From a virus (lineage: Duplodnaviria > Caudoviricetes), in IMG/VR virus record IMGVR_UViG_3300023174_000048, positions 32,001-96,000 of that record: DNA of 64,000 nucleotides. The stretch is one strand, 5' to 3'. Below, piece after piece: positions 3,774-32,011 of this stretch; the first letter of the stretch is position 1; the number at the start of each line of letters is the position of its first letter. The notes below the pieces were generated by a model. It was not told the DNA's origin. It made no database searches and saw only the letters and a program-made list of their open reading frames with translations. The translations under genes and the position numbers were made by a program.

Positions 3774-3797
3774 CAACCGATAACACTGTGGTATGAT
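3770..3797 (+). promoter_or_regulatory. sigma70-type promoter, 16-bp spacer, extended -10
   Basis: TTGACA (3770-3775), ACCGATAACACTGTGG, TATGAT (3792-3797); upstream of rIIA. Confidence 0.75.
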
Positions 3798-3843
3798 TGG
3801 GTTATCACAGGGAACGATTCACAGGACATTTGGAGACATAAAG

Positions 3844-6504
3844 ATGAAGTTGGCAGATCGCGTTATTGAGACTCATAGTGCTGGTGTTCGTAGCGAGTCT
3901 GGTTTTACAATCGCTCAGACTAGCAAAATGTTTAAAATCCTTTCGGACTCTCTTTATTCTGATAAGGTTATGGCAGTTATTCGTGAACTGTCTACTAATG
4001 CTTATGATAGTCATATTAGTGCTGGCAATAAGAATCCCTTCAAGGTGATCTTGCCAACATCTGCTAATCCGTCTTTTACAGTGCGTGATTATGGCACTGG
4101 GCTTAGTCAGGGCGATATGGAGAACCTGTATACAACCTACGGTGCTTCTAATAAGAATGATAGCAACGATTTTGTTGGTTGTCTTGGTCTTGGGAGTAAG
4201 AGTCCGTTTGCTTATACCAAGAGTTTTACTACTAGTTCTTATTTTAATGGAATTAAGTATACCTATATTGCCGCTATTGATGATAGTGGTGTTCCTACTC
4301 TGAATCTTTTTAATACTTGTGAAACTGACGAGGCTAATGGTCTTGAAATCAGTTTTGCTGTTAAGAACCATGATTTTAGTGAGTTTACCAACAAGGCTAT
4401 TAGGATTTTCCACTATTTCCGAATGAAACCCATCATTGAAGGTGGACTTGGAAATAATCTGCAAGATCATAAGTATAGCAATACCAATATTGTTATTAGT
4501 GGTAACGGCTGGAGAGTTTGCAGACTCAATAATGATACCCAGTATTACCCTAATAATTATCATCGTATTGATAGTGGTGTTGTTGCTATCATGGGTAATA
4601 TTGCATATCCTGTTCAGACCGCTCAGATTATTGGTCAGGAAAAGGAAGACCAACCAGATCATATTGCCAAGTGGAATAGGGCTTTCCAGAAGGCCGATAT
4701 TGATTCGTGGAAGAGTTTTGTTACTGAGATCATTAATTCTGGTCTTTATCTGGAACTTGATTTTGGTATTGGCGAACTGGAAATGGATGTTTCCCGTGAA
4801 GGTTTGCAGTATACCAAGAGTGTTATTAAAACTCTGCGTCAAAAGACTCAAGAGATTTATCTTGAGATGAAGGACGAATTTAGTAAGAAGATTTCTGCCG
4901 CCACAACCAAGATTGAGGCTATCACAACATATTATCAGATGAATGAATTGTCTGGTGGATGGGGTGTTGGTGCATCTTGGACTGATCCTAATGGTAAAAA
5001 CCACAACATTAATAGTGGTGCTGACCTTGAATATAAAATCAAGGCCGGTAAGAACCTGTACGTTTTTAACTACAAGAGCAGCGGGTATCGTTCACGACGC
5101 CTTATTTCTCTTACAGATAAAATCCATCACGATACTCTTACTGGTAAGGGATATTCTTACTGGAATGCCCAAAAGAAGAATGGGAAAATTGCTTTTTTTG
5201 TTTGTGATGTTAAGGGTGAAGAAACTGCCAAGAAGATTGTGACACGTTATTGTGGTCAAAATGATTGTTTTGCATATATGATTATGGACACAAAGGATCA
5301 TACTCAAAGCGACAAGGGTTTTGATGATCTGATTAGTGATGTTGGAGAGTCGAATCTGCTCAAGGTTTCTGACTATAAGCATCTTACTCAAAGTTCTGGC
5401 CCTCGTAAAAGTGGAGTCAGAAATAGTAATGGTAGTGTGAGCGATCAAGACATATTCTTTATTCATGGTCAGTCTAAGGATTCTGGTAAACTTAGTGTCG
5501 AATATAATGATGCTCTAAGTTTGAAAACTCTTACAAGTGACGAACTAGATGAATTGAGTGATAGTGATTCTATCATTTATGTTCCTATTCTTCGTTATCA
5601 AAGCACACCAGAGTTTCCTAAGATCAATAAGATTGTATCGCTATTTGATAATGAGAATATCAAGGGACTGTTTGGAAATGTGAAGGTTTATGCTATCAAG
5701 AGCAATTTTGTAGCAAAAATGACCAGTGAAGGACACAATCTTGTTGACTTTAACACTTGGTTTAAGAAGATTCTCTCAACAAAGATTAAGAATTATTTTA
5801 ACAATACCAATGAGTACAACTCTATTGTTGAATTCTACAAAAAAGAATTTATCAGTAAGGATGGTGATAACGATAATTATTATTACAATCATGGAACATT
5901 GGTTAGCCAGTTCTCTTGTCATATGTTGAGTATTTTTGGTCTTGAATATAAGAAATATATCAAGAACACTGAACTATGTAGTATTATTGATAGTTTTCTT
6001 GTAATGGAATTCTTTGCTGATACTATGCACAGAGCAACTTTTGATCTGAAACGATTCTCTCAGACTGAATATTTTGACCATATTAACTCTTTGCTAAAGG
6101 ATCGAGGTATTGATAATCTTGATAGTAAAGAACTCAAGAAGAAAAATGTACAGTATAACACTCTTATAAATATTCAACATCAGATGTTTGACTATTTTGA
6201 TGACACTGAGGAATATACTAAATTGTTTAAGTCTGATACTAAAGTAATCAAGTATAAGTTGACCAAAGCGGCAGACTTGAAGAAAATTCTTAAAGTCGAG
6301 GTTGACAAGAACCCGATGTTGAAGTATATTATGGGAAGCAACCAGAATAACGGCAGTATTAGAGATTTGGACAGCAAGAATAATCCTATCTCTCAATTTG
6401 CTGATAATTATTATGGTAAGAGAAATAATACTATATGGGTTGAGACTATGGATAGCGACAAGATTGATTTGTTTAAGATTCAATTGAGTAGTTTGATCAA
6501 GTAA
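3844..6504 (+). CDS. rIIA: RIIA-like protein (N-terminal GHKL ATPase)
   Basis: GHKL motifs IRELSTNAYDSH, VRDYGTGLS, GCLGLGSKSPFAY; directly upstream of rIIB; ATG 3844 follows GGAG. Confidence 0.9.
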   Translation: MKLADRVIETHSAGVRSESGFTIAQTSKMFKILSDSLYSDKVMAVIRELSTNAYDSHISAGNKNPFKVILPTSANPSFTVRDYGTGLSQGDMENLYTTYGASNKNDSNDFVGCLGLGSKSPFAYTKSFTTSSYFNGIKYTYIAAIDDSGVPTLNLFNTCETDEANGLEISFAVKNHDFSEFTNKAIRIFHYFRMKPIIEGGLGNNLQDHKYSNTNIVISGNGWRVCRLNNDTQYYPNNYHRIDSGVVAIMGNIAYPVQTAQIIGQEKEDQPDHIAKWNRAFQKADIDSWKSFVTEIINSGLYLELDFGIGELEMDVSREGLQYTKSVIKTLRQKTQEIYLEMKDEFSKKISAATTKIEAITTYYQMNELSGGWGVGASWTDPNGKNHNINSGADLEYKIKAGKNLYVFNYKSSGYRSRRLISLTDKIHHDTLTGKGYSYWNAQKKNGKIAFFVCDVKGEETAKKIVTRYCGQNDCFAYMIMDTKDHTQSDKGFDDLISDVGESNLLKVSDYKHLTQSSGPRKSGVRNSNGSVSDQDIFFIHGQSKDSGKLSVEYNDALSLKTLTSDELDELSDSDSIIYVPILRYQSTPEFPKINKIVSLFDNENIKGLFGNVKVYAIKSNFVAKMTSEGHNLVDFNTWFKKILSTKIKNYFNNTNEYNSIVEFYKKEFISKDGDNDNYYYNHGTLVSQFSCHMLSIFGLEYKKYIKNTELCSIIDSFLVMEFFADTMHRATFDLKRFSQTEYFDHINSLLKDRGIDNLDSKELKKKNVQYNTLINIQHQMFDYFDDTEEYTKLFKSDTKVIKYKLTKAADLKKILKVEVDKNPMLKYIMGSNQNNGSIRDLDSKNNPISQFADNYYGKRNNTIWVETMDSDKIDLFKIQLSSLIK

Positions 6505-6540: not shown

Positions 6541-7419
6541 ATGAGTGTTCCGTTTATGTTTGTTGATGGTAATCTGACGGTTGTGCTGAATAATAAGAGT
6601 TTTCAGGTTCTGCCTGACCACCTTAATTATAAGATGATTCTGGAGGCACTTCCCTCCGCAACTTCTGATGAGTTGCTTGAAATGATTGATATTGAGAAGG
6701 CAGTTGCTACTTTTAGCGATGGTCTTGTTGAGATCAAGAATGGTCAGGTAACTTATGAGGGTGAGGTTGTTCATGGGTCGATTAGCAAGAGAATTCTGGA
6801 GTTTATGAGCAAGGGTCTGCCTTTTCAGCCTCTTGTTAATTTCCTGAATAATCTTATGGAAAATCCTAGTATGCAGAGTCAAAAGGAACTCTACGATTTC
6901 CTTGAGCATGAGCATCTGCCTATTACTGAGGATGGTTATTTCCTTGCCTATAAGGCAGTCAGAGCAGATTACATGGACAAATATCGCGGAGTATTTGATA
7001 ATCATGTTGGTAATGTTTGCGAAATGACCCGATCAAAGGTTGATGATGATCGTGGTCGAGGTTGTTCTAATGGACTTCATGCTGGTGCATTGAATTATGT
7101 GGCCGGTTATGGTAGTCTGGAAAGTGGTGATAAGATTGTTATCGTTAAGATTAATCCTGCTGATGTTGTGAGTGTTCCTAGTGATTGCAACTATGAGAAA
7201 CTTCGCACTTGCCGATATGAAGTTGTCGGAGAGTATCAAGGCGAACTACTCAAGCCTCTTTATTCATCTGTCTTTAGTGAGGATGATTACGAGGACGAGG
7301 ACGAAGATTATGATAATGATTATGATTGGGGATGGAATGAGGATGATGACGAAGAGGCTGAAGAGGCTTATGCTGAAGATGACGAGGATGATGAGTTTGA
7401 TAACTCTTATCCTGGTTGA
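6541..7419 (+). CDS. rIIB: RIIB-like protein with acidic tail
   Basis: LYDFLEH..LPITEDGYFLAYKAV, CSNGLHAG, VKINPADVVSVP.D....KLRTCRYEVV. Confidence 0.9.
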   Translation: MSVPFMFVDGNLTVVLNNKSFQVLPDHLNYKMILEALPSATSDELLEMIDIEKAVATFSDGLVEIKNGQVTYEGEVVHGSISKRILEFMSKGLPFQPLVNFLNNLMENPSMQSQKELYDFLEHEHLPITEDGYFLAYKAVRADYMDKYRGVFDNHVGNVCEMTRSKVDDDRGRGCSNGLHAGALNYVAGYGSLESGDKIVIVKINPADVVSVPSDCNYEKLRTCRYEVVGEYQGELLKPLYSSVFSEDDYEDEDEDYDNDYDWGWNEDDDEEAEEAYAEDDEDDEFDNSYPG

Positions 7420-7428
7420 TTAAAATCG

Positions 7429-7493
7429 AAGGAATAGTCTGGGGACTGGATTAGTTAGTGCTAACTCTTAGGGTTCGATCCCCTAATTCCTTT
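7429..7493 (+). ncRNA. minimal tRNA-like RNA (intact acceptor and T arms, degenerate D and anticodon arms)
   Basis: AAGGAAT/ATTCCTT 7-bp stem stacked on TAGGG-TTCGATC-CCCTA; internal AGTC/GACT and AGTTAG/CTAACT hairpins; followed by a T run. Confidence 0.55.
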
Positions 7494-7568
7494 TTGCCGA
7501 CCATGACAGTAGCGTTTACTATCCCGGCTTATTTTGAGGTTGTTTACAATTACAGGTAACGGTGAAAT

Positions 7569-8747
7569 ATGTTTAAGATGGAACTTGGTTTTAATCCGTA
7601 TGATAAGGCTAATAGCAGTGCTGAAAAGCGTTATGCTAATTCGTGGAATGGACTGCAAGAGCAGTTTCTAAATTCTTTTAATCTAAATGCTGGTCATATC
7701 TTTTGCTACAATGGAGATCCTCGTAGAAAGATTAGTAGCATGAAACATACTAATGATCTTGTTGAGGTTCGTAATGCTAACGAGAATAGCAACTCTGATG
7801 CTTATTTCTATGTTAATGGTGGACGAAAGCAGTATGCTATCAACACTATTGCTTGTTGCTTTGTGGATATTGATGCTGGACGAGATGATGCTGGAAACTA
7901 TCTACCTTCAAAAGAGGTTATGAAGTTTAAGCAGTCCTCTCTTGACAAGATCAATAATTTTCCTGTTAAGCCAAGTTGGGTAGTAGATACTCGTAATGGT
8001 TATCAGATTTATTGGATTATGGATGATCAAAGTCGAACTCTGATTAATCAAACCACATGGAATGGTATTCAGAAGAAACTGGTAAATTACTTTGGTGGAG
8101 ATGCACGAGCCATCAAGATCAATCAGATTTATCGAGTTCCTTATACTTGGTGGCGTAAGTGCTGGGAAAAGAAGGCGTCTTACTTTACCAGTATTCTGAA
8201 CGGCTCAACTGGTCAGAGCGTTAATGTTCAAGATTTAATCTCTGCATTAAATGGTCAACCAGCAACAGTAACCATTGTTCCTAATGCTACTAGTGACGCT
8301 TGGTTTGACCAGTGGAGAAAAACCTATAAGAAGTCTGATGCTACTGGACTTCCAGTAACTGTTGATGCTGCTACAAAGATTCTGAATGAACTTAATAGTC
8401 AGAGGGCTACTTATACAAATAGCAGTGCTGATTATTGTGGTCAAAAGAACTCTATGAGTAGTGCTTGGGCGTCTTATAATCAGACTCCAAATAGTGACAA
8501 CGAGTATCTTTCAAAGGTTTATAACATCAAGTATGAAAAGGCTTATGGTGATCCGTCGCCGGTATTGCCTTCTCATGCTGGTGACAGTGGTTTAGTTTTG
8601 AGTGGGGAGCAGGCCAAACTTTTAAAAACGGTGGTCGAGTACCTCAATCAAGCGTCCACAGCGTTGTATTTCAGCAACAACCGATTCCTTTCTGGTGCTG
8701 CCAGAGACTTGGCAAGCCAGATTAGTGATAAATTTTGTGTGGGTTGA
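7569..8747 (+). CDS. RepB-like DNA primase (AEP superfamily)
   Basis: YFYVNGG, FVDIDAG (DxD), PSWVVDTRNGYQIYW, D...KINQIYRVP. Confidence 0.75.
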   Translation: MFKMELGFNPYDKANSSAEKRYANSWNGLQEQFLNSFNLNAGHIFCYNGDPRRKISSMKHTNDLVEVRNANENSNSDAYFYVNGGRKQYAINTIACCFVDIDAGRDDAGNYLPSKEVMKFKQSSLDKINNFPVKPSWVVDTRNGYQIYWIMDDQSRTLINQTTWNGIQKKLVNYFGGDARAIKINQIYRVPYTWWRKCWEKKASYFTSILNGSTGQSVNVQDLISALNGQPATVTIVPNATSDAWFDQWRKTYKKSDATGLPVTVDAATKILNELNSQRATYTNSSADYCGQKNSMSSAWASYNQTPNSDNEYLSKVYNIKYEKAYGDPSPVLPSHAGDSGLVLSGEQAKLLKTVVEYLNQASTALYFSNNRFLSGAARDLASQISDKFCVG

Positions 8748-8749
8748 AA

Positions 8750-9160
8750 ATGACAGACAAAGATCCAGAAAATAATGATCCTTACAAATTCTACTTTCAG
8801 ATAGATACTGAATGGGTCAAGAAATATATGGATAGTCTGATTAATAAGATAGAATATAAATGGATAACTAAGGAAGTTATAGAGGATGCTTTAAAGAACC
8901 TACCTAACTATAATACTCCGTTACTTCCAGATGGATTTTCTCCGATTGCGTTACCTGTGAGTAGTTGGCTCTCCAGTACAGTGGACGATAAAAAGTCCCT
9001 GTACTTGGGGAACAACTATTGGAATGAAGGAATATGGAAAATGAAGTATTTTGTCTATAATAAACTACAGAAAGATTATGAATTACATTTACAAGCTCAT
9101 GCTAAACATGTGGTTAGTCAGCCAAGATATTACGAATGTTTATTTGAAATACTTAATTAG
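8750..9160 (+). CDS. hypothetical protein
   Basis: ORF; ATG 8750 follows the primase stop. Confidence 0.65.
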   Translation: MTDKDPENNDPYKFYFQIDTEWVKKYMDSLINKIEYKWITKEVIEDALKNLPNYNTPLLPDGFSPIALPVSSWLSSTVDDKKSLYLGNNYWNEGIWKMKYFVYNKLQKDYELHLQAHAKHVVSQPRYYECLFEILN

Positions 9161-9168
9161 GATATTGT

Positions 9169-9612
9169 ATGAAAGATAAATCGTATATAATTCACGACAT
9201 GGATGCGTTTACTAATCATGTTAGAGTATTAGTGTATAATGCTTTTGGTAGTGGCTTATCAGAAGATAAAGAAGACAAAGAAGATCCAGAAATTGACGAT
9301 CTAATCTCTGTTAAGCCAGAAGATAAGGACGAGTTGGATAAAATATTATCTTTTGAAGAGTCTCTAAATATAGTAAATCATATAGTTAAAAAACAAAAAA
9401 ACAAAAAGACAAACAATATACGATACGTGGTAAATGATAGTATATTTTTGCAAGTATTAGAGTCTCTTAATGATAGAATGGTAAGCAACCTACTAAATAA
9501 TTTGGTAAACAAAGGAATTCTTGAAACAGGATTTGATAATGAAACTAATGATTTCCTGTTTTGGATAAAAGACAATGATAACAAAAAATCTGAAAAGCCA
9601 GAAACCGATTGA
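9169..9612 (+). CDS. hypothetical protein (acidic; possible winged-helix C-terminus)
   Basis: AGGA SD; LNNLVNKGILETGFD resembles a wHTH end. Confidence 0.65.
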   Translation: MKDKSYIIHDMDAFTNHVRVLVYNAFGSGLSEDKEDKEDPEIDDLISVKPEDKDELDKILSFEESLNIVNHIVKKQKNKKTNNIRYVVNDSIFLQVLESLNDRMVSNLLNNLVNKGILETGFDNETNDFLFWIKDNDNKKSEKPETD

Positions 9613-9985
9613 AATTGATGCTTCATTTAAATATAAATGTCCATCTGAGGATTGTGAAAATGAACATTGGCTCTTTCTAAGACAAGCACAGGTTAAGAAC
9701 TTTAAGATAGTCTGCGAGTGCGGTTTGATTTTCAAACCTAAACAGGTCAAAAACATTAAAATAATTTACGAAAAGCCCACAAAGAAACGAAAGATCGCAG
9801 AAGATATTGTGGATAGTATTCCTGTTGATCTATTGAACCAGTGTGCTAAGATTCTGTCTGGTTACGGATTTGATTTGGATGAGTCTAAAGAATTGATTAA
9901 ACAATCATATAATTCTTGCAAGACTAACGATATTGGTTTATTAGTTAAAAACGCTTTAAAATCTTTTGGAGAAAAAAATGGCTAA
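9575..9985 (+). CDS. Zn-ribbon protein with RuvA domain III-like C-terminus
   Basis: CPSEDC...CECG Zn ligands; C-terminal QCAKILSGYGFDLDESKELIKQS...DIGLLVKNALKSF resembles RuvA_C; overlaps the ruvB start. Confidence 0.6.
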   Translation: MITKNLKSQKPIEIDASFKYKCPSEDCENEHWLFLRQAQVKNFKIVCECGLIFKPKQVKNIKIIYEKPTKKRKIAEDIVDSIPVDLLNQCAKILSGYGFDLDESKELIKQSYNSCKTNDIGLLVKNALKSFGEKNG

Positions 9986-10889
9986 AGGTATTCGACCATC
10001 AACTTTTGATGAAATCATTGGACAGGATAATGTTAAGGAGCGTCTGCGAGTGTCTGTGATGGGTTGTAAAAACACAGGCACGGTGATGCCTCACGTTTTA
10101 ATAGACGGCCCTCCTGGCCTTGGTAAGACCACCATAGCGAGTGCCATAGCAAACGAGTTGGGGGTGAACCTTTATACCACCAATGCTGCAAATATACGAA
10201 GCATAAAAAACATTATTCCATATATTATGGGGATTGAACCAAGATCAGTTTTGTTCATTGATGAAATCCATAGATTGCCTAAAATTGTAGAAGAATTTCT
10301 ATATCCAATCATGGAAGATTTTGTACTCAATATCACTGTAAAAAATGATGAGGATAAAGACGTTCCAGAAACTATTGATCTTCCAATGTTTACTGTTGTT
10401 GGTGCTACAACCAGTGGTGGAAGTTTAAGTCAACCATTTTATGATCGCTTTTGCATTAAAGAACATCTATCTTTTTACAATACAGATGATCTAGCTAAAC
10501 TAGCAAGGTTGAATTCGTCTAAATTAGGAGTAGTCATAGAGGACTCAGACCTCTTAGAGATTGCACGACGAAGCAAAGGTACTCCAAGAATTCTAAATGC
10601 TAGATTGCAATGGTATAAAAATTATATGTCTTGTAATCCAGATAAAACTATTTCTGTGGATGAGATATTTAATGTTCAGGGTATTGATAATAATGGTCTT
10701 GATGTTTATGATAGACTATATATTGATATTTTGAAAAAGAGTAAGGGATCTCCACTTGGACTGAAAGCAATATCTTCAATGACAGGAATTGCTATTGAAA
10801 CTATTGAGAATAGTATTGAGCCATTTCTAGTTAGACGAGGATATGTAATCAGAACTCAAAAGGGGAGAGTTTTAGGATCTCAACCATAA
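9978..10889 (+). CDS. ruvB: Holliday junction branch migration ATPase RuvB
   Basis: IRPSTFDEIIGQ, Walker A GPPGLGKT, Walker B LFIDEIHRL, GATT, PFYDRF, GTPR, IEPFLV..GYVIRT.KGR. Confidence 0.93.
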   Translation: MAKGIRPSTFDEIIGQDNVKERLRVSVMGCKNTGTVMPHVLIDGPPGLGKTTIASAIANELGVNLYTTNAANIRSIKNIIPYIMGIEPRSVLFIDEIHRLPKIVEEFLYPIMEDFVLNITVKNDEDKDVPETIDLPMFTVVGATTSGGSLSQPFYDRFCIKEHLSFYNTDDLAKLARLNSSKLGVVIEDSDLLEIARRSKGTPRILNARLQWYKNYMSCNPDKTISVDEIFNVQGIDNNGLDVYDRLYIDILKKSKGSPLGLKAISSMTGIAIETIENSIEPFLVRRGYVIRTQKGRVLGSQP

Positions 10890-10926: not shown

Positions 10927-10952
10927 AAAGGGGCCTTTTTGGCCCCTTTTTT
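10927..10952 (+). terminator. intrinsic terminator
   Basis: AAAGGGGCC-TTTTT-GGCCCC followed by TTTTTT, after ruvB. Confidence 0.85.
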
Positions 10953-10988: not shown

Positions 10989-11300
10989 ATGGCAGATACT
11001 ATATACATACTATTAATTATATTGATACTATTAAATATAGTATTTTTCTTTTTGGGATACTTCCTTGGTCGATTAAATAGTAGTCAGACCACTATTGGGA
11101 GTCAGCCGGTTTCATTTTTTGATAAGAGCAAATCAAATAATGATAATTCTATTAATAAAATTACTATTGACGAGAGCAAGTATGTAACAGATATTAAGAC
11201 ATCTGGTATGGAGAAAAAATACGAAAATCTTGGCGAAACAAAAATATCTACAGAAAATATAGAGTCTTCAATTAATAAACTTAAGAATATAAAGAGGTAA
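10989..11300 (+). CDS. N-terminally membrane-anchored protein
   Basis: Hydrophobic residues 5-26 followed by a polar domain; upstream of the actin-like gene. Confidence 0.75.
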   Translation: MADTIYILLIILILLNIVFFFLGYFLGRLNSSQTTIGSQPVSFFDKSKSNNDNSINKITIDESKYVTDIKTSGMEKKYENLGETKISTENIESSINKLKNIKR

Positions 11301-11305
11301 TATTT

Positions 11306-12307
11306 ATGGGAAAAGGCTTAGATGTTGGAACTAGTTATATTGTATTATCTCAAGACTCTTCTAGTGGCGTTGTATACAAAGATTTTAGAGATGCTTTTTA
11401 TATTATCAAGCCAACCACCCCAGTTTCAACAAAAATGATTGAAAAAGGATTATCTGGAAAGATTTTTATTAAAGATACTGATGGTTCATTCATTATCTTG
11501 GGGAAAGATGCTATTGAAAAGGCTATTGAACGTAATGACAACGCAAAACGACCCATGAGCAAAGGCGTCGTATCCGCCAAGGAAAAGGATGCCAAGCGTG
11601 TTCTAGCCTTCATTTTAAAAGAAGTGGCCGGACAGGCATCAGAACAAAATGAGAAACTCGTATTCTGCGTCCCAGCACAACCAGTTGACCAAGAAGATGA
11701 GGATTTTGATGTTGGATATCATGAGGATGTAGTCAAGGCTATTTTGGGTGAATGTGGATATGATGCTAGAGCAATTAATGAAGCAGAGGCTTTATGCTAT
11801 GCTGAATTAGGCGACGAAGATTACACTGGAATAGCAGTATCATGTGGGGCAGGAATGACTAATGTGTGTGTGATGTTAAATGGCGAACCAACAGTTGTAT
11901 TTAGCACAACAAAATCTGGAGATTGGGTTGATCGTATGAGTGCGGTAGCCACTGGCGAAAAAGATAGTGTTGTGCAAGCTGAAAAAGAAGGTGGTGGATT
12001 TGTGATTGGTGAACATAATGATAATCCAGTTTTATCAGCAGTATCTTCATACTATGAGAGATTAATCGATTATACAACAAAGCAATTAACTGTTGCATTA
12101 TCTGGTCATAAGGCTTTGCCAAAATTTAAAAACCCATTAACTATTGTGGTTGCTGGAGGAACGTCTCAAGCAAAAGGATATATTGAGATTTTTACTAAAA
12201 AATTATCAGAAAATAACTTTCCTTTATCAATTAAAGTAGTCAAGCATGCTTCAGACCCCTTACATGCTGTATCAAAAGGATGTTTAATAGCAGCAAAGGT
12301 ATTATGA
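11306..12307 (+). CDS. actin-fold ATPase (MreB/ParM/FtsA/MamK superfamily)
   Basis: Phosphate-1 GLDVGTS, connect-1 INEAEAL, phosphate-2 VSCGAGMT, adenosine VVAGGTSQAKG, connect-2 DPLHAVSKG. Confidence 0.85.
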   Translation: MGKGLDVGTSYIVLSQDSSSGVVYKDFRDAFYIIKPTTPVSTKMIEKGLSGKIFIKDTDGSFIILGKDAIEKAIERNDNAKRPMSKGVVSAKEKDAKRVLAFILKEVAGQASEQNEKLVFCVPAQPVDQEDEDFDVGYHEDVVKAILGECGYDARAINEAEALCYAELGDEDYTGIAVSCGAGMTNVCVMLNGEPTVVFSTTKSGDWVDRMSAVATGEKDSVVQAEKEGGGFVIGEHNDNPVLSAVSSYYERLIDYTTKQLTVALSGHKALPKFKNPLTIVVAGGTSQAKGYIEIFTKKLSENNFPLSIKVVKHASDPLHAVSKGCLIAAKVL

Positions 12308-12308
12308 G

Positions 12309-15300
12309 ATGGTTGACAATATCAAAATTATTGGATTAAATCCTAATCAAAGTCCAACGCCAACAAAAAGTGTTACTCCAACACCTACAAAAACACCTAC
12401 AAACACTCCAACAAATACTATAACTCCGACAAAAAGTCAAACACCAACAGCAACCCCGACAGTAACATCAACAGTAACTCCCACCAAAACAGCCACAAGA
12501 ACACCTACAAAATCTTTATGTGTATGGAATGGATATGGCCAAGTATGGTTAGCTAACTGTAATAATGAGAAAATTAATGTTCGTTGGATTAGAACTTCTA
12601 ATAATAACAACTGGACTGGAACATTTAATTATGGCTCAAACAGCATAACATCAACAATAACATATAATGCAAATTTATTAAATTTAAAAAATACAAGTTG
12701 CAAAGATTTATGGACAGTAACTTTTAATTTTAGTTGTGTTCCTTATGGTCAATCTTTAGCATATGATTTACCTCATTGTTCATGTAATAGTCCTGGAATT
12801 ATTGTAATTAGTAGTTCAGCATCTAACTGTATGTGTACTACTCCAACACCAACTCCAACAATTACAGCAACAAATACTCAAACACCAACCCCCACACCAA
12901 CAAATACTCAAACAAAAACTCCCACACCAAGCAATACGGTTACGCCAACTCCCACACCAACAACAACCCAAACAAAAACTCCAACACCAAGTAATACTGT
13001 TACGCCAACTCCCACAATTACTGTAACACGAACAAGCGGTCTGACAAAAACGCCAACCCCAACACCAACAGTAACTCCAACTACAACACAGTGCTATCCA
13101 GATGTTCCTACGGGATTATTAGCAGAATGTGGTTCATGTGAGTCTGGCTCATTAATTAATTTAAGTTGGTTCCCTCCAACATCATCTTGTTTAAATGGAT
13201 TTGACGTACAAATGTTGGTAAATAATACTATTGTATATAATACATATGTAGTCGCGGGGCAAAATAGTATTGGAATACCATTATTTTCAGACAATAGAAC
13301 TTACACATTTAGAATACGATCTTCTTCTGGCTTTGGAGGTAATAATTTTAGTCAATGGATAGAATTCCCTGGATCCTTTACTAATAATATCTGTTGCCCA
13401 ACTAGTACTCCAACTCCAACACCAACACCAACTAAAAATCTAAAGTGTAATAATTCATGGCCAAATATCCCAAGTGCGGGAGTATCGCCGGGATCTATTA
13501 TTGGATTAACATCTGGAGCTATATGGGCAGCTGTTTCTTACTGGAAATATCCATTTAGATTTATAAAAGATAGGAATGTAACAAACGACCAGAGTACTAA
13601 TGGTATAAATTTTATTATTGGAGAACAAATATTAGTAAGAGTAGCACCGTTTTATGATGTCCTTCTTGGTATTCCAGGAAATTATATAATAAATAATATT
13701 GTATATAATGAAGATTATTCAGGAATGTTTACTGCTGACACTCTATATGTCTCATGTTTAGATACTGATTTAACTTTTACAGATACTTATGTATTAAATT
13801 TTATTGATGAATCACAGCCAAATTATACTGATACCCAATATGGCAATCTGGTTGGAAATCTCTGGCCTGTTGATGTAAAATACTTCAACGAATCAGTATC
13901 ACCATCGGCTCGTAAATTTGTGGCAGCTTTTGACATTGATACCAATTATGAGGTAGCAAATCCATCACAAGGCTGGGGTGAGATTTGGCCGTCTGGTGCT
14001 GTTGGCGACATAGCAAATAGTCTATGCTCTTTACCAATACCCAAACAAAACATTATTCAAACTTCTAGACCAACTCCAGAATCACAAAATATATTTTTAA
14101 ATTATGTACAAAATCAAATCGTAAACACATTGCAATGGGGTACATTTGATGAAATAAAAAGTAATTCTCCAAATGCTAAATTTGTTCTTATTGTGGATGA
14201 TAGCGGATCTATGACATATGAGTTGGTCCAAACTGCTCTTGAATCTTTAAAAAGTATTATACTTGCAGCTGGCCTTGATTGTGTAATATTAACACTATGT
14301 AAAAACGAAAGATGGCTACAGTGGTCTGCTTACGTTTTAAATAATATAACAACTATTCATGACCCTAATTTTAAAGAAGATATGTGTAACTGTTCATTAC
14401 GCTTTGAAGATAGTGATGGATGTTCAGTTATGGTTGAATTTACCAATCCATATGATGGATCTATTATACGCCAAGATGGATCTGCCGCAAGTCCACTACA
14501 ATATTGGTCTATACATCCTATGTTATCTTCTGGAAATTGTCCAGCACCTTTAGATAGGAGAGATCCATTTGATGCTACTGGTATTACAATATTAAGTTAT
14601 AGGATATCCAATCTTATTTCTCCTGTTCCTGGCGGATCTTCCTCAGATACTGATAATATAAATATTACAGCAAAATTAAAATGTAAAAATGGTACATTTA
14701 TGCTTGATGTAGTATCTGATTATGCTTTTTGGGAAACTTGTACTGGTGGAACCAGTAGTAGTGATCATGCTTATTTATATTGGGATAATATAGAAATACC
14801 AGTTAATGGTCTTGGCTATCCAGATGGTGTTGTTAATTTGGGAGATCCAACTAGAGCTGAGACATGCTTTAATCAAGATATAGAACTCAAACCATATGAT
14901 AATATTAATATTAAATTTACTTATATTGGAACAGATATTATTCCAAATAATCCATGTGAACCATATAGAAATTCTGCAAATTTTAATAGTTCTGCTGACT
15001 GGGGTGGTCAAAATGGTAATATTACTACAGTAGGAACTAACGGTAGCCCTAGTTATTATGGTACATATGATCAAAGTGGTAATGTGAATGAATGGATAGA
15101 TGGAATAGGAGAAAAATTAGTTCGTGGAGGAGGCTATCCAGGATTATTAAGTAATCAAAACTCTGCAAATCGTGGACAACGTAGACAAACGTTTAATTCT
15201 TCGCAGGGCTCTTTAGGTTTTAGAGTAGCGTCTAGCTCACCAGGACCATCATTAGTAAAAATAGGAAATCCGGGTAATATTAATGATTCAACAGGATACG

Positions 15301-18300
15301 GGGCGGTTGCTGTTGATTACTATATCGGAAAATATGAAATTACTAATAGTGATTATATAGAATTTTTAAATGCAGTTGCTAAACAAGATACTCATTATTT
15401 ATATAACAGTCAACTTGAAACCAATATTCGAAGCGGAATAGTGCGTCAAGGAATTGATAGCAATTATTTTTATAGCGCTAAAGATAATATGTGTAATAAA
15501 CCAATTAATTTTGTGAGTTGGTTCAATGCTGCGAGATATTGCAACTGGCTGCATAATGGTAAACCAACTGGACCTCAAAATAGTAACACAACAGAAGATG
15601 GAGCATACTCTCTTTCTTCGATAGATTCTGATAATCCTATTATATATAAAAATAATAATGCTAAGTATTGGATACCAACAGAAAATGAATGGTATAAGGC
15701 AGCGTACTATAGTCCAGTAAAAAGAGGGGTTAACTCGCCAGGATATTATACCTACTCTACACAGAGCGACACAGAACCATCTTCCATATCCGCCAATAGC
15801 GTAGGAAATGGAAATGCAAGAATTAGTGATTATACATGTTCTGTTCCTACTATCACAGCCACTCCAACCCCCACATCAACAGTAACTCCAACACCAACGC
15901 AAACATTACCAGATAATTTAATGCGAATAAATAATCTATCATTCTGTGAAGACAATAGTGAAATTGGCGCGGCTATTATAGTTACTTGGAATATAATAAA
16001 TAGTGATATAAATCTTAATCAAATCTATTGTTTGGCATATCAAAAATACCCTGGAGATGATTGGACATATTATAAGTCATTAAATGGCAATATAAAATAT
16101 TATACAATAAATGGTAGTGAGATTAAAATAACTCAAAATTTTAATATGTTCGGCGGACCAGATATAATACCATATGGCATAAGATTGGTTTTGGTACCAA
16201 ATGAATTAGCTTATAATTTTGTTTTTTCATTAAACGAGACAGATACTACAGGATGTCTTGTGTCTGAAGCTTTTAATAGTTCACTATTGTGTTTTACTCC
16301 AACCCCCACATCAACAGTAACTCCAACGCCAGGATTAACTAGAACACCTACACCAACTCCAACTCCAACAAGTATGTCTAAAAGCTGTTATTCTGTTAAA
16401 GATGTTTGTTGTTGTATATATAGTACTCAAGAAGATAATAATATATTAAACGGTCTTCTTACATGGACACCCATAGATTCTACATGCAAGTTTGATCGTT
16501 ATCAGATTGCTCAATATGATTCTATTACTAATATTTGGCGAATGTTATTTAGCTTGGATCGTTCGTATAATAGTTGTCCAATACAGATATCTACTAATAT
16601 GTTATATTCTAAATTTAGAATAAAACCAATAAATATTACTTATGGTCTAGTAGGCGATTGGGTAGAATCTAAAGACATAAGTAGCACAGGACCAATATGC
16701 AATGGAGATTCATGTGACAATAAGGTTTCTGTTTATAACGTATCTGCACAATGTAACTGTGGAGTCATAGGAACAGAGTCATCAAATAATCAGTCTAGTA
16801 TATTAGATAATTCAATTTTAGTAAATTTTAAATGTAATGATAATGATATTACAGCATTCACTATAGACTATATAGCATCATCATCACAAAATTATTATCA
16901 ACCAGAAACAAAATTTTCTTTTCCTATAGAATCAAAACTACTAACTGACACTATAAGTTCTAATGTTTTAGAATTAGAATATAATAATCAATTTAAAAAA
17001 AGTATAATTACTAGTTACTCATACATTACCATTAATAATATTAAATATAATATTATATCTTCTAATATTTTTATTGATAAAGTTGTAATTAATATATCAC
17101 AAAGAGTTAACATATCTGCTGGATCAATAGTTTTTGTAGAACAATGGGCAACAGCAGGATTAATCGATCAATCTATGACTATAGAAAATTTAACTAGAAA
17201 TTCTGATAATTCTATAAGCTTTAAAGCGCGCCCTAATACCAGTAATCAGTTTATTATTTTTGATCCTTGCTTACCAACTATTAGAATTGGAGCCCTTGGT
17301 ATAGACAGAAGTATCAATGGATTCCAACAACAGCTTGATAGTCTAAAAACTATAGCAAATACAACATTATGTACTAATGACATGGCAGTAGCTGCTCCGA
17401 TAGACTTAACAATTCAATGCGATAAGATAAACAATCAATCAACAGTATTATTTAGTTGGACTCCTCCAACTGACATTAACGGAATAACAACATATCAATT
17501 GGATGCTTATAATCCAAGTTTTGGCTGGTATAGTGATACAGCTGGGTATATGGATCAGATTGTATGGAAGAATAGATATCCTATAAGAGATCCATACGAC
17601 AATACTTTTGAAATTAGTGTTATAGGAAGAAATAATATTCCCAATAAAATGGCCTTATTATCTTCTGAGTTTGGTACTAATTTAAATCTTAATTATTCAT
17701 TTAGAATAAGGTCATTAAATGAATATACTGGAGAATATAGTAGTTGGAGCAATGTGATAGCGGGTATAAATCCATTTAAATGTTGGGATCATGGAATACA
17801 CATCTCAGACATAATGGTTGGAGACGAAGGTTTTTCTGATAAGTCTAGACAATTTACTATAACTTTTGATCAAAATATAGGCTGTTGGAAAAACTTCCAA
17901 TATAAAACATATAATCCTAACACTGTCAGTTCTGCACAATGGATTGATGTAAAAACACAAACATCAGCAACAACAGATTGTTCACAATTCATTACTAATG
18001 TAATTATACCAGATGTAGATTCATCAATTTGCTTTAAGTTCTATTCTGTAGACTCTGGCGGGAATACAGTCGAAACTAGTAATGAATATTGCTTAAGTGT
18101 TCCTCCTGTTATTCCTCCAATTATTGATCCTCCTCCTCCGGTATGTCCAGATACAGTATTGAGTAGTATAAGGGTGATGTATAGTAATACTAACGGTAAA
18201 GGTCCGTGTGGAGGTGGGCATAATTGTAATAGAGCACAATTTATTTTATCTATTAATGATATTTTTATAGGAAATGTTAATCTTAATAATGCTGGTGGAG

Positions 18301-18854
18301 GCACTGACCCTGGTACACCAACAAATCCTAGTGATTTTCCAAGTTTAATTCCAATAGGATCACAAGATAGAGGAAATAAATTTAATATACCATTTGATAG
18401 TTTAGGTAATACGATGATTACTCCTATATTATTAAATAACGGATCATTGGGATATAAAATTAATTTGATTTGTGCAAATAATCAAAATATAATGATGCCA
18501 CTATGCGATTTAACTCAAGACACAGATTGGATTTATAGTGGAAGTGGTCCTAAATGTAATCCTTTATTAAATAATAATAATTTATGGATGTCTGACGGAT
18601 CAACATTTAGCACTTTCAAGTGTTGTGCTGCTCATTCAGATAGTTATACGTATGTTGGCGGATCTAATGGTTGTCATACTGGAATAGCATGGATTGAACT
18701 ATTAGACATTGATAATAATATAGTGTTAAGTTGCTGTGTTCCTGTTGATACAGTATCATACATATTAACAGATAATGCTAAGTGCTTAGATACACAAAAT
18801 AGTTTACAAAATAATACTTTTGGTCTAGAATTTTTAACTATTACAAATAATTAG
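12309..18854 (+). CDS. giant (2181 aa) Pro/Thr-repeat, Cys-rich probable virion surface protein with FN3-like, vWA-like and permuted FGE-sulfatase domains
   Basis: Several TPTPT tracts; FN3-like LSWFPP...YTFRIRS and FSWTPP...YSFRIRS; MIDAS-like DDSGSM; FGE motifs. Confidence 0.8.
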   Translation: MVDNIKIIGLNPNQSPTPTKSVTPTPTKTPTNTPTNTITPTKSQTPTATPTVTSTVTPTKTATRTPTKSLCVWNGYGQVWLANCNNEKINVRWIRTSNNNNWTGTFNYGSNSITSTITYNANLLNLKNTSCKDLWTVTFNFSCVPYGQSLAYDLPHCSCNSPGIIVISSSASNCMCTTPTPTPTITATNTQTPTPTPTNTQTKTPTPSNTVTPTPTPTTTQTKTPTPSNTVTPTPTITVTRTSGLTKTPTPTPTVTPTTTQCYPDVPTGLLAECGSCESGSLINLSWFPPTSSCLNGFDVQMLVNNTIVYNTYVVAGQNSIGIPLFSDNRTYTFRIRSSSGFGGNNFSQWIEFPGSFTNNICCPTSTPTPTPTPTKNLKCNNSWPNIPSAGVSPGSIIGLTSGAIWAAVSYWKYPFRFIKDRNVTNDQSTNGINFIIGEQILVRVAPFYDVLLGIPGNYIINNIVYNEDYSGMFTADTLYVSCLDTDLTFTDTYVLNFIDESQPNYTDTQYGNLVGNLWPVDVKYFNESVSPSARKFVAAFDIDTNYEVANPSQGWGEIWPSGAVGDIANSLCSLPIPKQNIIQTSRPTPESQNIFLNYVQNQIVNTLQWGTFDEIKSNSPNAKFVLIVDDSGSMTYELVQTALESLKSIILAAGLDCVILTLCKNERWLQWSAYVLNNITTIHDPNFKEDMCNCSLRFEDSDGCSVMVEFTNPYDGSIIRQDGSAASPLQYWSIHPMLSSGNCPAPLDRRDPFDATGITILSYRISNLISPVPGGSSSDTDNINITAKLKCKNGTFMLDVVSDYAFWETCTGGTSSSDHAYLYWDNIEIPVNGLGYPDGVVNLGDPTRAETCFNQDIELKPYDNINIKFTYIGTDIIPNNPCEPYRNSANFNSSADWGGQNGNITTVGTNGSPSYYGTYDQSGNVNEWIDGIGEKLVRGGGYPGLLSNQNSANRGQRRQTFNSSQGSLGFRVASSSPGPSLVKIGNPGNINDSTGYGAVAVDYYIGKYEITNSDYIEFLNAVAKQDTHYLYNSQLETNIRSGIVRQGIDSNYFYSAKDNMCNKPINFVSWFNAARYCNWLHNGKPTGPQNSNTTEDGAYSLSSIDSDNPIIYKNNNAKYWIPTENEWYKAAYYSPVKRGVNSPGYYTYSTQSDTEPSSISANSVGNGNARISDYTCSVPTITATPTPTSTVTPTPTQTLPDNLMRINNLSFCEDNSEIGAAIIVTWNIINSDINLNQIYCLAYQKYPGDDWTYYKSLNGNIKYYTINGSEIKITQNFNMFGGPDIIPYGIRLVLVPNELAYNFVFSLNETDTTGCLVSEAFNSSLLCFTPTPTSTVTPTPGLTRTPTPTPTPTSMSKSCYSVKDVCCCIYSTQEDNNILNGLLTWTPIDSTCKFDRYQIAQYDSITNIWRMLFSLDRSYNSCPIQISTNMLYSKFRIKPINITYGLVGDWVESKDISSTGPICNGDSCDNKVSVYNVSAQCNCGVIGTESSNNQSSILDNSILVNFKCNDNDITAFTIDYIASSSQNYYQPETKFSFPIESKLLTDTISSNVLELEYNNQFKKSIITSYSYITINNIKYNIISSNIFIDKVVINISQRVNISAGSIVFVEQWATAGLIDQSMTIENLTRNSDNSISFKARPNTSNQFIIFDPCLPTIRIGALGIDRSINGFQQQLDSLKTIANTTLCTNDMAVAAPIDLTIQCDKINNQSTVLFSWTPPTDINGITTYQLDAYNPSFGWYSDTAGYMDQIVWKNRYPIRDPYDNTFEISVIGRNNIPNKMALLSSEFGTNLNLNYSFRIRSLNEYTGEYSSWSNVIAGINPFKCWDHGIHISDIMVGDEGFSDKSRQFTITFDQNIGCWKNFQYKTYNPNTVSSAQWIDVKTQTSATTDCSQFITNVIIPDVDSSICFKFYSVDSGGNTVETSNEYCLSVPPVIPPIIDPPPPVCPDTVLSSIRVMYSNTNGKGPCGGGHNCNRAQFILSINDIFIGNVNLNNAGGGTDPGTPTNPSDFPSLIPIGSQDRGNKFNIPFDSLGNTMITPILLNNGSLGYKINLICANNQNIMMPLCDLTQDTDWIYSGSGPKCNPLLNNNNLWMSDGSTFSTFKCCAAHSDSYTYVGGSNGCHTGIAWIELLDIDNNIVLSCCVPVDTVSYILTDNAKCLDTQNSLQNNTFGLEFLTITNN
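12901..13020 (+). repeat. 60-nt tandem duplication in Pro/Thr tract
   Basis: 12901-12960 and 12961-13020 are near identical (3 mismatches over the 48-nt core). Confidence 0.85.
15861..16327 (+). repeat. identical 32-nt dispersed repeat (15861-15892 and 16296-16327)
   Basis: ACTCCAACCCCCACATCAACAGTAACTCCAAC occurs twice, flanking one about 130-aa domain. Confidence 0.8.
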
Positions 18855-18864
18855 GAATGTAATT

Positions 18865-21800
18865 ATGTCAATTTATGATAATGTGTTTTTTGAAGGTTTC
18901 AGTATACGAGATGATCAAAATATTATTCGTTTAGATCCATACTATTGGACTACTAATACATTATATACTAATGATCAATTATATGGACTAGACTCTGGCG
19001 ATTCAGGATTTATATTCCAAGCTTATGATGAAAATTTACGAGGTCAAAATTATATAACATTACAAAATTTTAAACAAATACCAAATTATTTTTCTTTGTA
19101 TTTTTGGACTAGTGGATCACTAATGCCTAAAAAAGTATTAAGAACAGTTATTAATGGCTATCCTCAATATGAATATCCTTCTTGGAATATTTTAACATTA
19201 TGGTCTAGTAGTGGTCCAGTTACACTTACTGTTGTTCCTGTTTATAGTTATGATCCTGCTGGTTGTTTAGAAAATTTATATTATAATCTTGTTGTTAATT
19301 TTGGAGCATCCACTTTTACTTATAATTTAAATCTAAATAATGAGATTAATGATCTTGCAATAGGCGGATTGAACTTTATGTCTTATATGAATGTATGGAA
19401 TTGTCAAGATAATTTTAATGCTTCAATACTTATTTTAAATTATGATATAGTTATTGAAAATAATCAACTGCGTATTTACATATCAAATCCATGGAGTAGC
19501 AGAGATAAAAAACCATTAGTAGATAGTCAAGGAAATGATTATATCAATGTAGACTCTAATAATGAAATTTTTGGAATAACATTTTATAATAATAAAGTTG
19601 CTGCTAATGAAATAGATACAGGATCACCACCTACTGTATTATATAATGTTATTGTTAATGCTCCTTTTTTAAGTAATACAATAAATAAATATCGTGTTAA
19701 AAATAATAAAGGAAATAAAGTAAAATCAAGTATTGATTCATGGCGATCTATAATAGATAAAAATAATACTAGCAATAGTAGTATTGTAAATTCATTAATT
19801 AATAAGGATACTAATTTTATTTATCCGATTGTAAAACCAGCAATATTAAAATTTGAAGATGATACTGGCACACCTGGACTAGATGGTTTAGAACCTCCAG
19901 TAGTTGGAGATGTAATTAAATCAACAAAAATTATTAATCTATTAAAGCTCAATACTCTTCCAGAAGATGAAACAACATGTTTTACTAACATATTAGATGA
20001 TGGAACTAAAATATATCCTCTTGGAGATACTAAATATTTATCTCCATCTAATGATTATTCTACACTTACTAGTATAGTTCCAAATAATCCGTCTACAAAC
20101 CTTGAATGGTCAGTAGATGATTTAAATAATATGAAATTTGGATTTATTTATCCAAGTGGGGCTTTAAAATGCTCTCCTGCTACAAGATATTCATTGTTAA
20201 ATATAATACCACAAAAAACTAAACTTAATTGGTTAGAGCCAGATTGTTTTTCTACTCTAGGAGTTAATAGTCAAGAATTTCAAGTATCATATGATTGTGG
20301 AAGCACATGGAATACAGTAAATTATGGAGTAATAAATAAAGAATTATTAAATGTTCCATATGCAGATTGGCCAAAAGCATTATATGAGCTATCTACTTTG
20401 GCTGATTATAATCCTCCATCTCCTCAAACAAATTGTGGACAAAATCCAACTCGCTACCGAATGAGATATGCTGATCTAAGCAAAAAATGTTCATATGGAG
20501 AATGGGTAGATTTCACTTTGTTCAATATTCCAACTCCCACTCCAACTAAAACACCAACTAAAACACCAACGCCAACACTAACTCCATCATCAACAAAAGT
20601 ATTAAATTGTTTTAATATAATAACACAGCCTACAGATCAATTTTTAAATCAATCAGATGGATCAACTGCAACTTTCCAAGCAACTTTAAGTTCAGAAGCG
20701 CTTAGTAAAATTGGACTTTTTCCTGATGGTTGGAACTATGGGAATAATCATATGGTATGGGAGTTCTGGTCCCCGCTAGATGGATATTGGCTCCCTGTTA
20801 ATCTTATATGTTCTGCTGTTGATGGATATTTTTCAGCAATTGATGGGGGTAATTATTATGATAACTGTAATGCTCCATATCCTCTTAATGACACAGATTC
20901 TTTAACTATAACATATAAAGCAAGTGATATTCCTCCAGGGGGCACAGAACCTTTAGTATGGAGTAATGTTGCTATCCGTAGAGGAGGTTCGCAACTTGGA
21001 AGTATATATGATATAAGTTTTAGATTAGCAATAGCTTTTAATACTCCAGTATACTTTCCAGGATATGGGAATCAGAATGTATGTTATTCAAATGTTGTTA
21101 AACTTTTAAGAAGTCCCGCTACTCCAACACCAACACCAACAAGAACACAAACACAAACACCGACTAAATATTTAACAGCAACACCAACAAAATCAACAAC
21201 TCCAACAAATAGTATAACACCTAGCATAACAAACACACCCACTATAACTTCAACACCAACAGTAACTCCAACATCAACTCAGCCAGGATCTCTTCGTAAT
21301 GCTATTATGATGCCGGATATTAATGGTATAAATGTAGAGTGGATTAGCCCATATAATGACAGCTCAACTATTGGTTTTAGAATAACTGCTATTTATGTTT
21401 ACGGAAATGGACTATCTACAAATTATGCACAACATTCATATATTGATGTTTTAATTGGAGATGCTGGTCTTAACAACTATTGTACTAATCTTATATTAGA
21501 AAAAGGATCAGATAATTGTTGGTCATATAATATTGGAGGAGTTAATGATCAAAATGTTCTTTATTTAGTAACTGTAACTCCAATAACAGCTAATGGACCG
21601 GCATATGTTAAAGGGGTTTATGCTCGTGTAACACAGAGTTTTTGGGATACTCATCCATCATATCAAGAAAGAATACATAATGTTAGTGATATTATTTATA
21701 GTAATGCAAAGGCTATGGTAAGCAATCCTTTTGGAACATGGGACTATAATAGTAGTCTCGTTAATTATTATAATCATGATATATATACAGTTCCTGGGGA

Positions 21801-23879: not shown

Positions 23880-24248
23880 ATGTTTAATTTTAGTAATCGA
23901 TCATCCAGATGGACAACAGTTAGAAAAGAACATCTTAAAAAAAATAATAGTTGTTGTGGATGTGATAAAAAAGATAAGTTAGAAGTTCATCATATTGAAC
24001 CAGTTCATGTTGATCCAAATAGAGAATTAGATCCTTCAAATTTAATAACATTATGTAAAAGTTGTCATTTTAATATTGGCCATTTAATGGATTGGAGTAG
24101 TTGGAATATTGATGTTATTAGTGATAGTAGGGTGTATTTAAATAAAGTAAAGAATCGACCTTATCAAATAAAGGTTCAAAGCAATGAAAGCTCTAATTAT
24201 TTTCATCGTTGCTTGTGTTGGATACTCAATAGCATTAGCAGGAACTAG
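23880..24248 (+). CDS. HNH endonuclease
   Basis: CCGC, EVHHIEP, NLITLCKSCH. Confidence 0.85.
   Translation: MFNFSNRSSRWTTVRKEHLKKNNSCCGCDKKDKLEVHHIEPVHVDPNRELDPSNLITLCKSCHFNIGHLMDWSSWNIDVISDSRVYLNKVKNRPYQIKVQSNESSNYFHRCLCWILNSISRN
24131..24138 (+). promoter_or_regulatory. GGTGTATT motif
   Basis: Inside the HNH 3' end, about 45 nt before ORF 24184; may be a coding coincidence. Confidence 0.35.
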
Positions 24249-31983: not shown

Positions 31984-32011
31984 TTGACATTCATTGACCT
32001 CGACCTATAAT
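31984..32011 (+). promoter_or_regulatory. sigma70-type promoter, 16-bp spacer
   Basis: TTGACA (31984-31989), 16 nt, TATAAT (32006-32011). Confidence 0.8.

Follow-up and report, generated by a model that had tools for sequence, protein, structure and literature searches.

In this study, a window of 64,000 nucleotides, positions 32,001 to 96,000 of the IMG/VR record IMGVR_UViG_3300023174_000048 (Duplodnaviria; Caudoviricetes), was analysed around two overlapping genes: a small gene whose product is here called the adaptor, and the ruvB gene that directly follows it. The adaptor gene encodes an N-terminal zinc ribbon, a flexible linker and a C-terminal three-helix bundle that, by profile and fold comparisons, is homologous to domain III of the Holliday-junction protein RuvA. 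The window is phage DNA, with rIIA (3793-6504) and rIIB (6541-7419) giving strong PHROG matches, and giant Thr/Pro-rich proteins are also encoded in it. Its source is an uncultured freshwater phage lineage carrying RuvB. The coordinates of all features are collected in Table 1.

Homologs of the adaptor formed 83 clusters at 90% identity, and an exhaustive search with a hidden Markov model (HMM) recovered at least 500 clusters (50% identity) at E ≤ 1e-3 and 260 at E ≤ 1e-10. All of the best 150 matches in this search were 80-184 amino acids long, and the failure to find any fused or longer form is weak evidence. The family alignment comprised 34 members, 34-88% identical to the window protein, in which C22, C27, C47, C49, W32 and G98 were invariant. 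The pattern C22-x4-C27 and C47-x-C49, which the first-pass annotation had noticed in an open reading frame (ORF) overlapping the ruvB start, is consequently retained with all four cysteines. Moreover, the ratio of nonsynonymous to synonymous substitution rates (dN/dS) was 0.09-0.17 among closer relatives (pairs with dS ≥ 0.25); the zinc ribbon and the C-domain were both constrained, and the linker was relaxed. Because of the homolog clusters, the invariant residues and this ratio, the adaptor gene is judged from its sequence to be real, functional and under purifying selection. An AlphaFold2 model built with the family alignment had a mean predicted local distance difference test score (pLDDT) of 83, and it contained the ribbon, a disordered linker, the bundle and nothing else. 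A Pfam scan of the window adaptor gave no significant match, and no family for this protein was found in PHROGs, Pfam or NCBIfam. The family is essentially absent from cellular genomes: among 185,579 species it was found once, on a 1103-bp contig (RFNS01000222.1) of an alphaproteobacterial metagenome-assembled genome (MAG) from Lake Lanier. A mis-binned phage fragment is the probable explanation for this contig, which as a lead to the host is faint at best and too little for naming one. In the cultured-phage collection 'phages', the locus had no DNA relative and the adaptor had no relative by tblastn.

The helices of the C-terminal bundle were modelled at residues 84-96, 101-114 and 120-134, with a Y97-G98-F99 motif that includes the invariant glycine, and the charge of this domain is about neutral across the family. 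When the family profile was searched against all PDB sequences, the best match was Thermus RuvA domain III (1ixs_A, E 0.0038), and the ten matches also included full-length Thermus RuvA, three domain III sequences from cryo-EM and E. coli RuvA. Furthermore, hhalign of the phage C-domain alignment with domain III of eight bacterial RuvAs, taken from loci matched in the 'phages' collection, gave a probability of 96.5% (E 8.8e-10, 47 columns), with the phage Y-G-F placed on the L-G-Y of RuvA and the last helix on I-x-x-A-L-K. Scanned singly against Pfam, 10 of the 34 C-domains matched RuvA_C, all short of its threshold (best E 0.0037), as against three members for the next family and one member each for UBA and UBA_9. 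In an exhaustive fold comparison by VIA-align with 48,161 PDB representatives, the first four ranks were all RuvA (Z 7.3, 6.9, 6.3 and 6.3), with a root-mean-square deviation (rmsd) of 1.6-2.3 Å over 48-51 residues, which is the whole domain; the top match had 1.9 Å over 51 residues. UBA and EF-Ts bundles lay below these, at Z 4.1-5.0. The top ranks of Foldseek were also mostly RuvA (1ixs_A, template modelling score 0.76, rmsd 1.8 Å), with weak E-values (about 1), as expected at 50 residues. The likeness of the C-terminus to RuvA domain III, first noticed by eye, has in this way been upheld by four kinds of comparison, and the generic UBA-like fold that had been named as the contrary outcome was outranked by RuvA.

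An HMM of full-length RuvA, made from the eight bacterial sequences, aligned to the adaptor only through its positions 155-198, at a non-significant E of 2.3. Since the window protein alone obtains no Pfam match, the C-domain is best described, on profile and fold, as a diverged homolog of RuvA domain III and not as a member by the Pfam threshold. Gene content was compared in five related phage genomes (G001-G005) with completeness ratings of 95-100%, the nearest of which (G001) is a 131-kb IMG/VR entry rated at 95%. A six-frame search of these genomes with Pfam RuvA_C gave no match at E ≤ 10; therefore, the domain lies beyond single-sequence Pfam reach in those members. Neither the oligonucleotide/oligosaccharide-binding (OB) fold of RuvA nor its helix-hairpin-helix domain was found in the Pfam scan or in the model of the adaptor, which agrees with the first-pass annotation that both were lacking and that junction-binding domains I-II had been replaced by the zinc ribbon.

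The ORF downstream is, by its motifs and profile matches, a full, intact and genuine RuvB. It matched Pfam RuvB_N (7.6e-49, 165.9 bits, cut-off 27), AAA_lid_4 (2.7e-09, 37.1 bits, cut-off 27) and RuvB_C (3.9e-17, 62.4 bits, cut-off 24.7), and it passed the NCBIfam equivalog NF000868 with 307.4 bits (cut-off 282); against TIGR00635 it scored 284.4 bits, slightly below the cut-off of 299. In a phmmer search of solved RuvB structures, residues 3-299 were aligned at E 7.8e-69. The motifs GPPGLGKTT (Walker A), LFIDEIHR (Walker B), GATT (sensor 1) and GTPRI (sensor 2), the arginine of YDRF at the arginine-finger position and the presensor-1 hairpin LNITV...IDLP were aligned with their solved counterparts, and the basic C-terminal hairpin was also in place. 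These motifs and hairpins were invariant among 14 phage RuvBs. The likely start is the ATG at 9978, not the TTG at 9966, and this same ATG, residue 5 of the ORF as read from TTG, is where the called RuvB starts of relatives align. Because translation is taken to begin there, the overlap with the adaptor gene is 8 nucleotides, and the first 8 nucleotides of ruvB, ATGGCTAA, form the end of the adaptor gene. RuvB matches in the 'phages' collection (L086-L094; MK448681, MN180249, CAKLQF020000007, OR844993 and others) were considered as further phage RuvBs and rejected. They are 36-41% identical and lie beside canonical ruvA and housekeeping genes (mraY, rnhB, dgt), which makes a bacterial origin most likely, from prophage flanks or mis-assigned assemblies.

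A multimer prediction of the adaptor with RuvB, which the first-pass annotation had proposed as a check, was made with RuvB and adaptor residues 78-136, each with its family alignment, together with three controls. The pair scored 0.61 and the best of the controls 0.00, although memory of solved complexes may contribute to this score; the mark of the tool is reached by 58 of 80 solved complexes and by 2 of 110 mismatched pairs. The runs agreed in at least 97% of contacts, and the pLDDT of the partner was at least 85. On RuvB, numbered from ATG 9978, confident contacts were predicted at S75-G85, F107, L117-K122 and E131-D134, the last two being the arms of the presensor-1 hairpin according to the alignment with solved RuvB. 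On the adaptor, the contacts were Q89, I93, G96-F99, I120-K125, L128-K129 and F131-E133, which include the most conserved positions of the domain. Wald et al. described a composite hydrophobic site for RuvA domain III, built from a helix of RuvB together with its presensor-1 hairpin, and regarded domain III itself as a nucleotide-exchange factor and a fulcrum for the RuvB lever (PMC9477746). The predicted contacts agree with this published composite interface (PMC9477746), and the model supports a placement of the adaptor C-domain in which it could bind RuvB.

The ribbon was modelled with a pLDDT of 92-96 at about residues 10-60 and with 86 when folded alone. Its strands were predicted at residues 17-21 and 30-34, with short ones near residues 45 and 52 (pLDDT > 90). 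Two cysteine knuckles on beta-hairpins, the mark of a zinc ribbon, were found, with CxxxxC and CxC invariant in the 34 sequences; coordination of zinc is itself a prediction. The dN/dS of the ribbon was about 0.05-0.1. The ribbon is a basic domain, with family means of +6.1 for net charge and 9.1 for isoelectric point and with eight conserved Lys/Arg columns, and this conserved positive charge points to nucleic acid as a putative ligand. Fold searches retrieved generic ribbons only, all weakly (Z ≤ 3.2 or E ≥ 0.76), among them ZitP (Z 3.2), LysW and archaeal eS27. A profile search of the PDB with the ribbon found nothing, Pfam scans of single members scattered over many ribbon families, and Atlas features of the ribbon were solely those of the adaptor's own viral clusters. 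The linker had a pLDDT below 50 at residues 72-77 and was disordered over residues 66-82 in the AlphaFold2 model; its length varied from 9 to 41 amino acids across the family, and its sequence was unconserved.

The adaptor and ruvB are strictly linked. In 84 of 84 related loci with room downstream, ruvB starts within a few bases of the adaptor end, and the sole locus without a RuvB match has 7 bases of room; the first-pass annotation had held that a failure to co-occur would speak against a partnership, and no such failure was seen. RuvB is 68-78% identical where the adaptor is 42-50% identical, and the adjacency is kept in relatives only 35-45% identical. The order rIIA, rIIB, primase-like gene, small ORFs, 144-147-amino-acid ORF, adaptor and ruvB is likewise kept down to 35% identity. 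All compared relatives belong to a single lineage of phages of 130-225 kb.

The absence of ruvA and ruvC, proposed for the window from inspection, held in a six-frame search, and a canonical ruvA elsewhere was also not seen, with neither a RuvA N-domain nor RuvC found in the five related genomes. A weak phmmer match to RuvC at ORF 566-1129 (E 0.028) was rejected, this ORF being really a calcineurin-like metallophosphoesterase. A RecA/UvsX-like gene and a DnaB-like helicase were each found in all four genomes searched, and endonuclease VII was found in three of the five related genomes. The idea that RuvB serves as the replicative helicase, which the adjoining primase-like gene had suggested, was dropped because of the DnaB-like helicase in those four genomes. 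An SF2 Helicase_C domain was not found in any of the five genomes. For phages of 130-225 kb with rIIA and rIIB, a helicase complement without detectable SF2 Helicase_C is unusual.

Table 1. Positions of the adaptor, ruvB and neighbouring features in the window.
Feature	Position	Strand	Remarks
Calcineurin-like metallophosphoesterase, 187 amino acids	566-1129	+	Pfam 3.5e-08
Hairpin TTAGGGTTCGATCCCCTAA followed by a T run	7468-7486	+	Just 3' of rIIB; loop tRNA T-arm-like
Primase-like protein, 392 amino acids	7569-8747	+	Weak primase or primase-polymerase (AEP) matches: phrog_3123 1.2e-07, phrog_10514 1.9e-04, Pfam RepB_primase 0.073
Upstream ORF, 147 amino acids	9169-9612	+	Overlaps adaptor start by 38 nucleotides; possible winged-helix protein
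Adaptor gene	9575-9985	+	136 amino acids plus stop: zinc ribbon, linker, RuvA-domain-III-like bundle
N-terminal zinc ribbon, residues 1-66	9575-9772	+	C22, C27, C47, C49 and W32 invariant
Flexible linker, residues 67-82	9773-9820	+	pLDDT, length variation, relaxed dN/dS
Three-helix bundle homologous to RuvA domain III, residues 83-136	9821-9982	+	Profile, profile-profile, Pfam and fold comparisons
Shine-Dalgarno sequence GGAG	9968-9971	+	6 nucleotides before RuvB ATG, inside adaptor 3' end; read from sequence
RuvB	9978-10889	+	303 amino acids from ATG: AAA+ large domain with presensor-1 hairpin, lid, C-terminal winged helix
Intrinsic terminator-like hairpin	10927-10949	+	9-bp stem, 6 GC pairs, T run; consensus scan, pattern match only
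Small ORF (103 amino acids, hydrophobic N-terminus), then Volactin-family actin-fold protein	10989-12307	+	Actin 11306-12307, Pfam PF25216 4.5e-64
HNH endonuclease, trypsin-like protease and subtilase trio	23880-25837	+	

The primase-like gene, two small ORFs, the adaptor and ruvB form one apparent transcription unit from the hairpin at 7468 to the terminator at 10927, and the terminator-like hairpin is predicted to close this unit 3' of ruvB. No tRNA was found in 7300-7700 by ARAGORN. The 147-amino-acid ORF upstream of the adaptor keeps its position and overlap in two distant relatives (L002 and L004, 35-45% identical). For its C-terminal half, Atlas gave winged-helix leads (DsrD, MarR, FaeA), all below 0.9, and Pfam gave HTH_56 at E 0.049; this protein may be a candidate third component with the adaptor and RuvB. 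On the other side of the unit, the pair of the 103-amino-acid ORF and Volactin also follows ruvB in L002 and in another relative, L003, and is absent in L004. In L004, the HNH, trypsin-like and subtilase trio (7407-9538 there) stands directly after ruvB. This arrangement suggests that a variable insertion, made up of the actin gene and the two giant Thr/Pro-rich genes (12309-23877), separates ruvB from the trio in the window.

The explanation that we favour, with a probability of about 0.6, is that the adaptor is a phage-specific mini-RuvA substitute, which couples the phage RuvB to recombination intermediates for branch migration. In bacterial RuvAB, contact with domain III both tethers the RuvB motor and drives its nucleotide exchange and ATP hydrolysis. 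In the phage, the C-terminal bundle would dock on a hydrophobic RuvB surface made of the presensor-1 beta-hairpin and adjacent helices, and it would be a handle that engages and activates the phage RuvB. The flexible linker would join this bundle to the basic zinc ribbon, which would stand in place of RuvA domains I-II and most likely hold the complex on phage DNA, branched or duplex, near recombination intermediates. The adaptor and RuvB would then drive branch migration in T4-style recombination-dependent replication; no UvsW- or RecG-type helicase was found in this lineage, which carries a UvsX/RecA-like recombinase and usually endonuclease VII as resolvase.

Several points weigh against this explanation. 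RuvA works as a junction-shaping tetramer, and no tetramerisation module is evident in the adaptor. The window protein alone reaches no Pfam RuvA_C threshold and has no match at E ≤ 0.1. The ribbon lacks any specific relative, and its basic charge is no more than a circumstantial sign that it binds DNA. Moreover, the pass of the complex prediction may partly be memory because similar complexes have already been solved; the score may reflect likeness to, or memory of, solved complexes of RuvA domain III with RuvB, and it shows likeness rather than binding by this pair. Because all loci belong to one phage lineage, the synteny, and with it the adjacency, is partly inherited gene order. Furthermore, a host RuvA could serve the phage RuvB.

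Other explanations differ mainly in what the two ends of the adaptor bind. It is conceivable, and in our judgement unlikely, that domain III binds RuvB while the ribbon binds a protein. Partners of this kind could be the recombinase, the replisome, the primase-like protein from the same apparent transcription unit or the 147-amino-acid winged-helix-like protein, and RuvB would in that case be brought not to Holliday junctions but to another substrate, for instance a fork, a structure at an origin or in a concatemer, or a protein-DNA complex that it strips. The closest folds of the ribbon include protein-binding ribbons (ZitP, LysW) besides ribosomal ones, all of them weak at Z ≤ 3.2, and the adaptor shares one apparent unit with the primase-like gene, two small ORFs and ruvB. 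In distant relatives too, the 147-amino-acid ORF overlaps the adaptor start and looks winged-helix-like, which is a lead only, and the lack of an evident tetramerisation module would also suit such delivery. However, the ribbon is strongly basic with conserved Lys/Arg columns, which fits nucleic-acid binding, and the UvsX/RecA-like recombinase, the endonuclease VII and the lack of a UvsW-type helicase are at least equally consistent with ordinary branch migration. With a recombinase and a resolvase but no other branch-migration helicase in the lineage, a role at junctions is the more economical assumption. That the ribbon does not recognise Holliday junctions, and that RuvB is handed either to a protein partner (the product of the 147-amino-acid ORF or the primase-like protein) or to non-junction DNA, is likewise rather doubtful.

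Two explanations without any coupling to a substrate or to RuvB appear less likely. A regulator or decoy, quite improbable in our estimate, would be a free domain III that modulates or blocks host or phage RuvB through the RuvA-binding surface, by which the host RuvAB would be shut down or the phage motor kept inactive. RuvA domain III contacts a conserved surface on RuvB, and because of this conservation and of the cross-species RuvA/RuvB complementation that is documented (PMC9477746), binding of the phage copy to host RuvB is conceivable; as a monomer that lacks the junction-binding core, such a domain III could then compete with RuvA. This is opposed by the constant company of the phage's own ruvB, whose Shine-Dalgarno sequence lies inside the adaptor gene, by the conserved basic ribbon (dN/dS about 0.05-0.1), which a simple decoy would not need, and by the near absence of the family from cellular genomes (one 1.1-kb MAG contig). 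Very improbable is a chance resemblance, in which a zinc-ribbon protein that does something unrelated, perhaps as a small transcription factor, carries a generic UBA-like bundle, and the adjacency with ruvB is inherited order. Three-helix bundles are common, the Foldseek E-values are about 1, a Z of 7.3 is within the range of the tool's warning on common arrangements, and the window protein has no significant Pfam match. Nevertheless, RuvA domain III came first in two independent structure searches and in two sequence-profile tests, the L/Y-G-Y/F motif and the C-terminal A-L-K helix align column for column, and the controls of the complex prediction all scored 0.00.

RuvAB is the textbook bacterial branch-migration machine, and to our knowledge RuvA has always been seen as one three-domain protein. 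The adaptor resembles bacterial RuvA in its C-terminal bundle, homologous to domain III (PF07499 RuvA_C) and carried on a flexible linker, in its gene position directly upstream of ruvB, as in most bacteria, and in its predicted docking on the presensor-1 hairpin region of RuvB. Unlike bacterial RuvA, it has a 66-residue basic zinc ribbon instead of the OB-fold domain I (PF01330 RuvA_N), and only 16 disordered residues between ribbon and bundle in place of domain II with its two helix-hairpin-helix motifs; because these domains are lacking, it is without a known tetramerisation or junction-shaping core. It is also shorter (136 amino acids versus about 200) and too diverged for the Pfam gathering threshold. 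The isolated RuvA domain III (PDB 1ixs; cryo-EM 7pbl-7pbt) is its best sequence and fold match, and since the solved fragment alone binds RuvB, the module is autonomous. Those fragments, however, are laboratory truncations, whereas the phage module sits naturally on another targeting domain and is under purifying selection in hundreds of phage lineages.

Beyond RuvA, the likely niche of the pair recalls that of T4 UvsW, an SF2 (superfamily 2) branch-migration helicase that serves recombination-dependent replication, as a phage motor beside a UvsX-type recombinase and endonuclease VII; the two are unrelated protein families, and the analogy is drawn from gene content only. DnaG-type primases and UBA-domain cofactors of the AAA+ protein p97 are built to a similar plan, in which a zinc ribbon or a targeting module is tethered flexibly to a small helical domain that docks on a hexameric motor; beyond generic folds, however, they are not homologous to the adaptor, which lacks a catalytic domain. 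A search of 8.4 million full texts for phage RuvB or for an adaptor resembling RuvA turned up no description of the adaptor protein. In a survey of 224 jumbo phages, RuvC resolvases were uncoupled from a RuvB-like ATPase (PMC7824862), and in the light of this finding a bona fide RuvB in a phage lineage is in itself out of the ordinary.

In conclusion, what is new here is a RuvAB system in which the junction-binding half of RuvA has been exchanged for a zinc ribbon, leaving a natural minimal adaptor. The phage family in which the RuvB-activating domain is naturally split from the junction-binding core is large, with at least 500 clusters at 50% identity. The adaptor-RuvB pair is small and easily expressed, and it offers a direct test of the nucleotide-exchange and fulcrum model of domain III (PMC9477746); moreover, it can show whether RuvB needs a tetrameric junction clamp for useful work. 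If it is true that RuvB is retargeted, the RuvB hexamer would be a retargetable double-stranded DNA pump for fork remodelling, origin or concatemer processing and protein stripping, and RuvA domain III would be a portable 'motor handle', open to grafting onto new targeting domains in the course of evolution. As a mini-RuvA substitute with its own motor, the pair suggests a route by which these phages may carry out T4-like recombination-dependent replication without UvsW.

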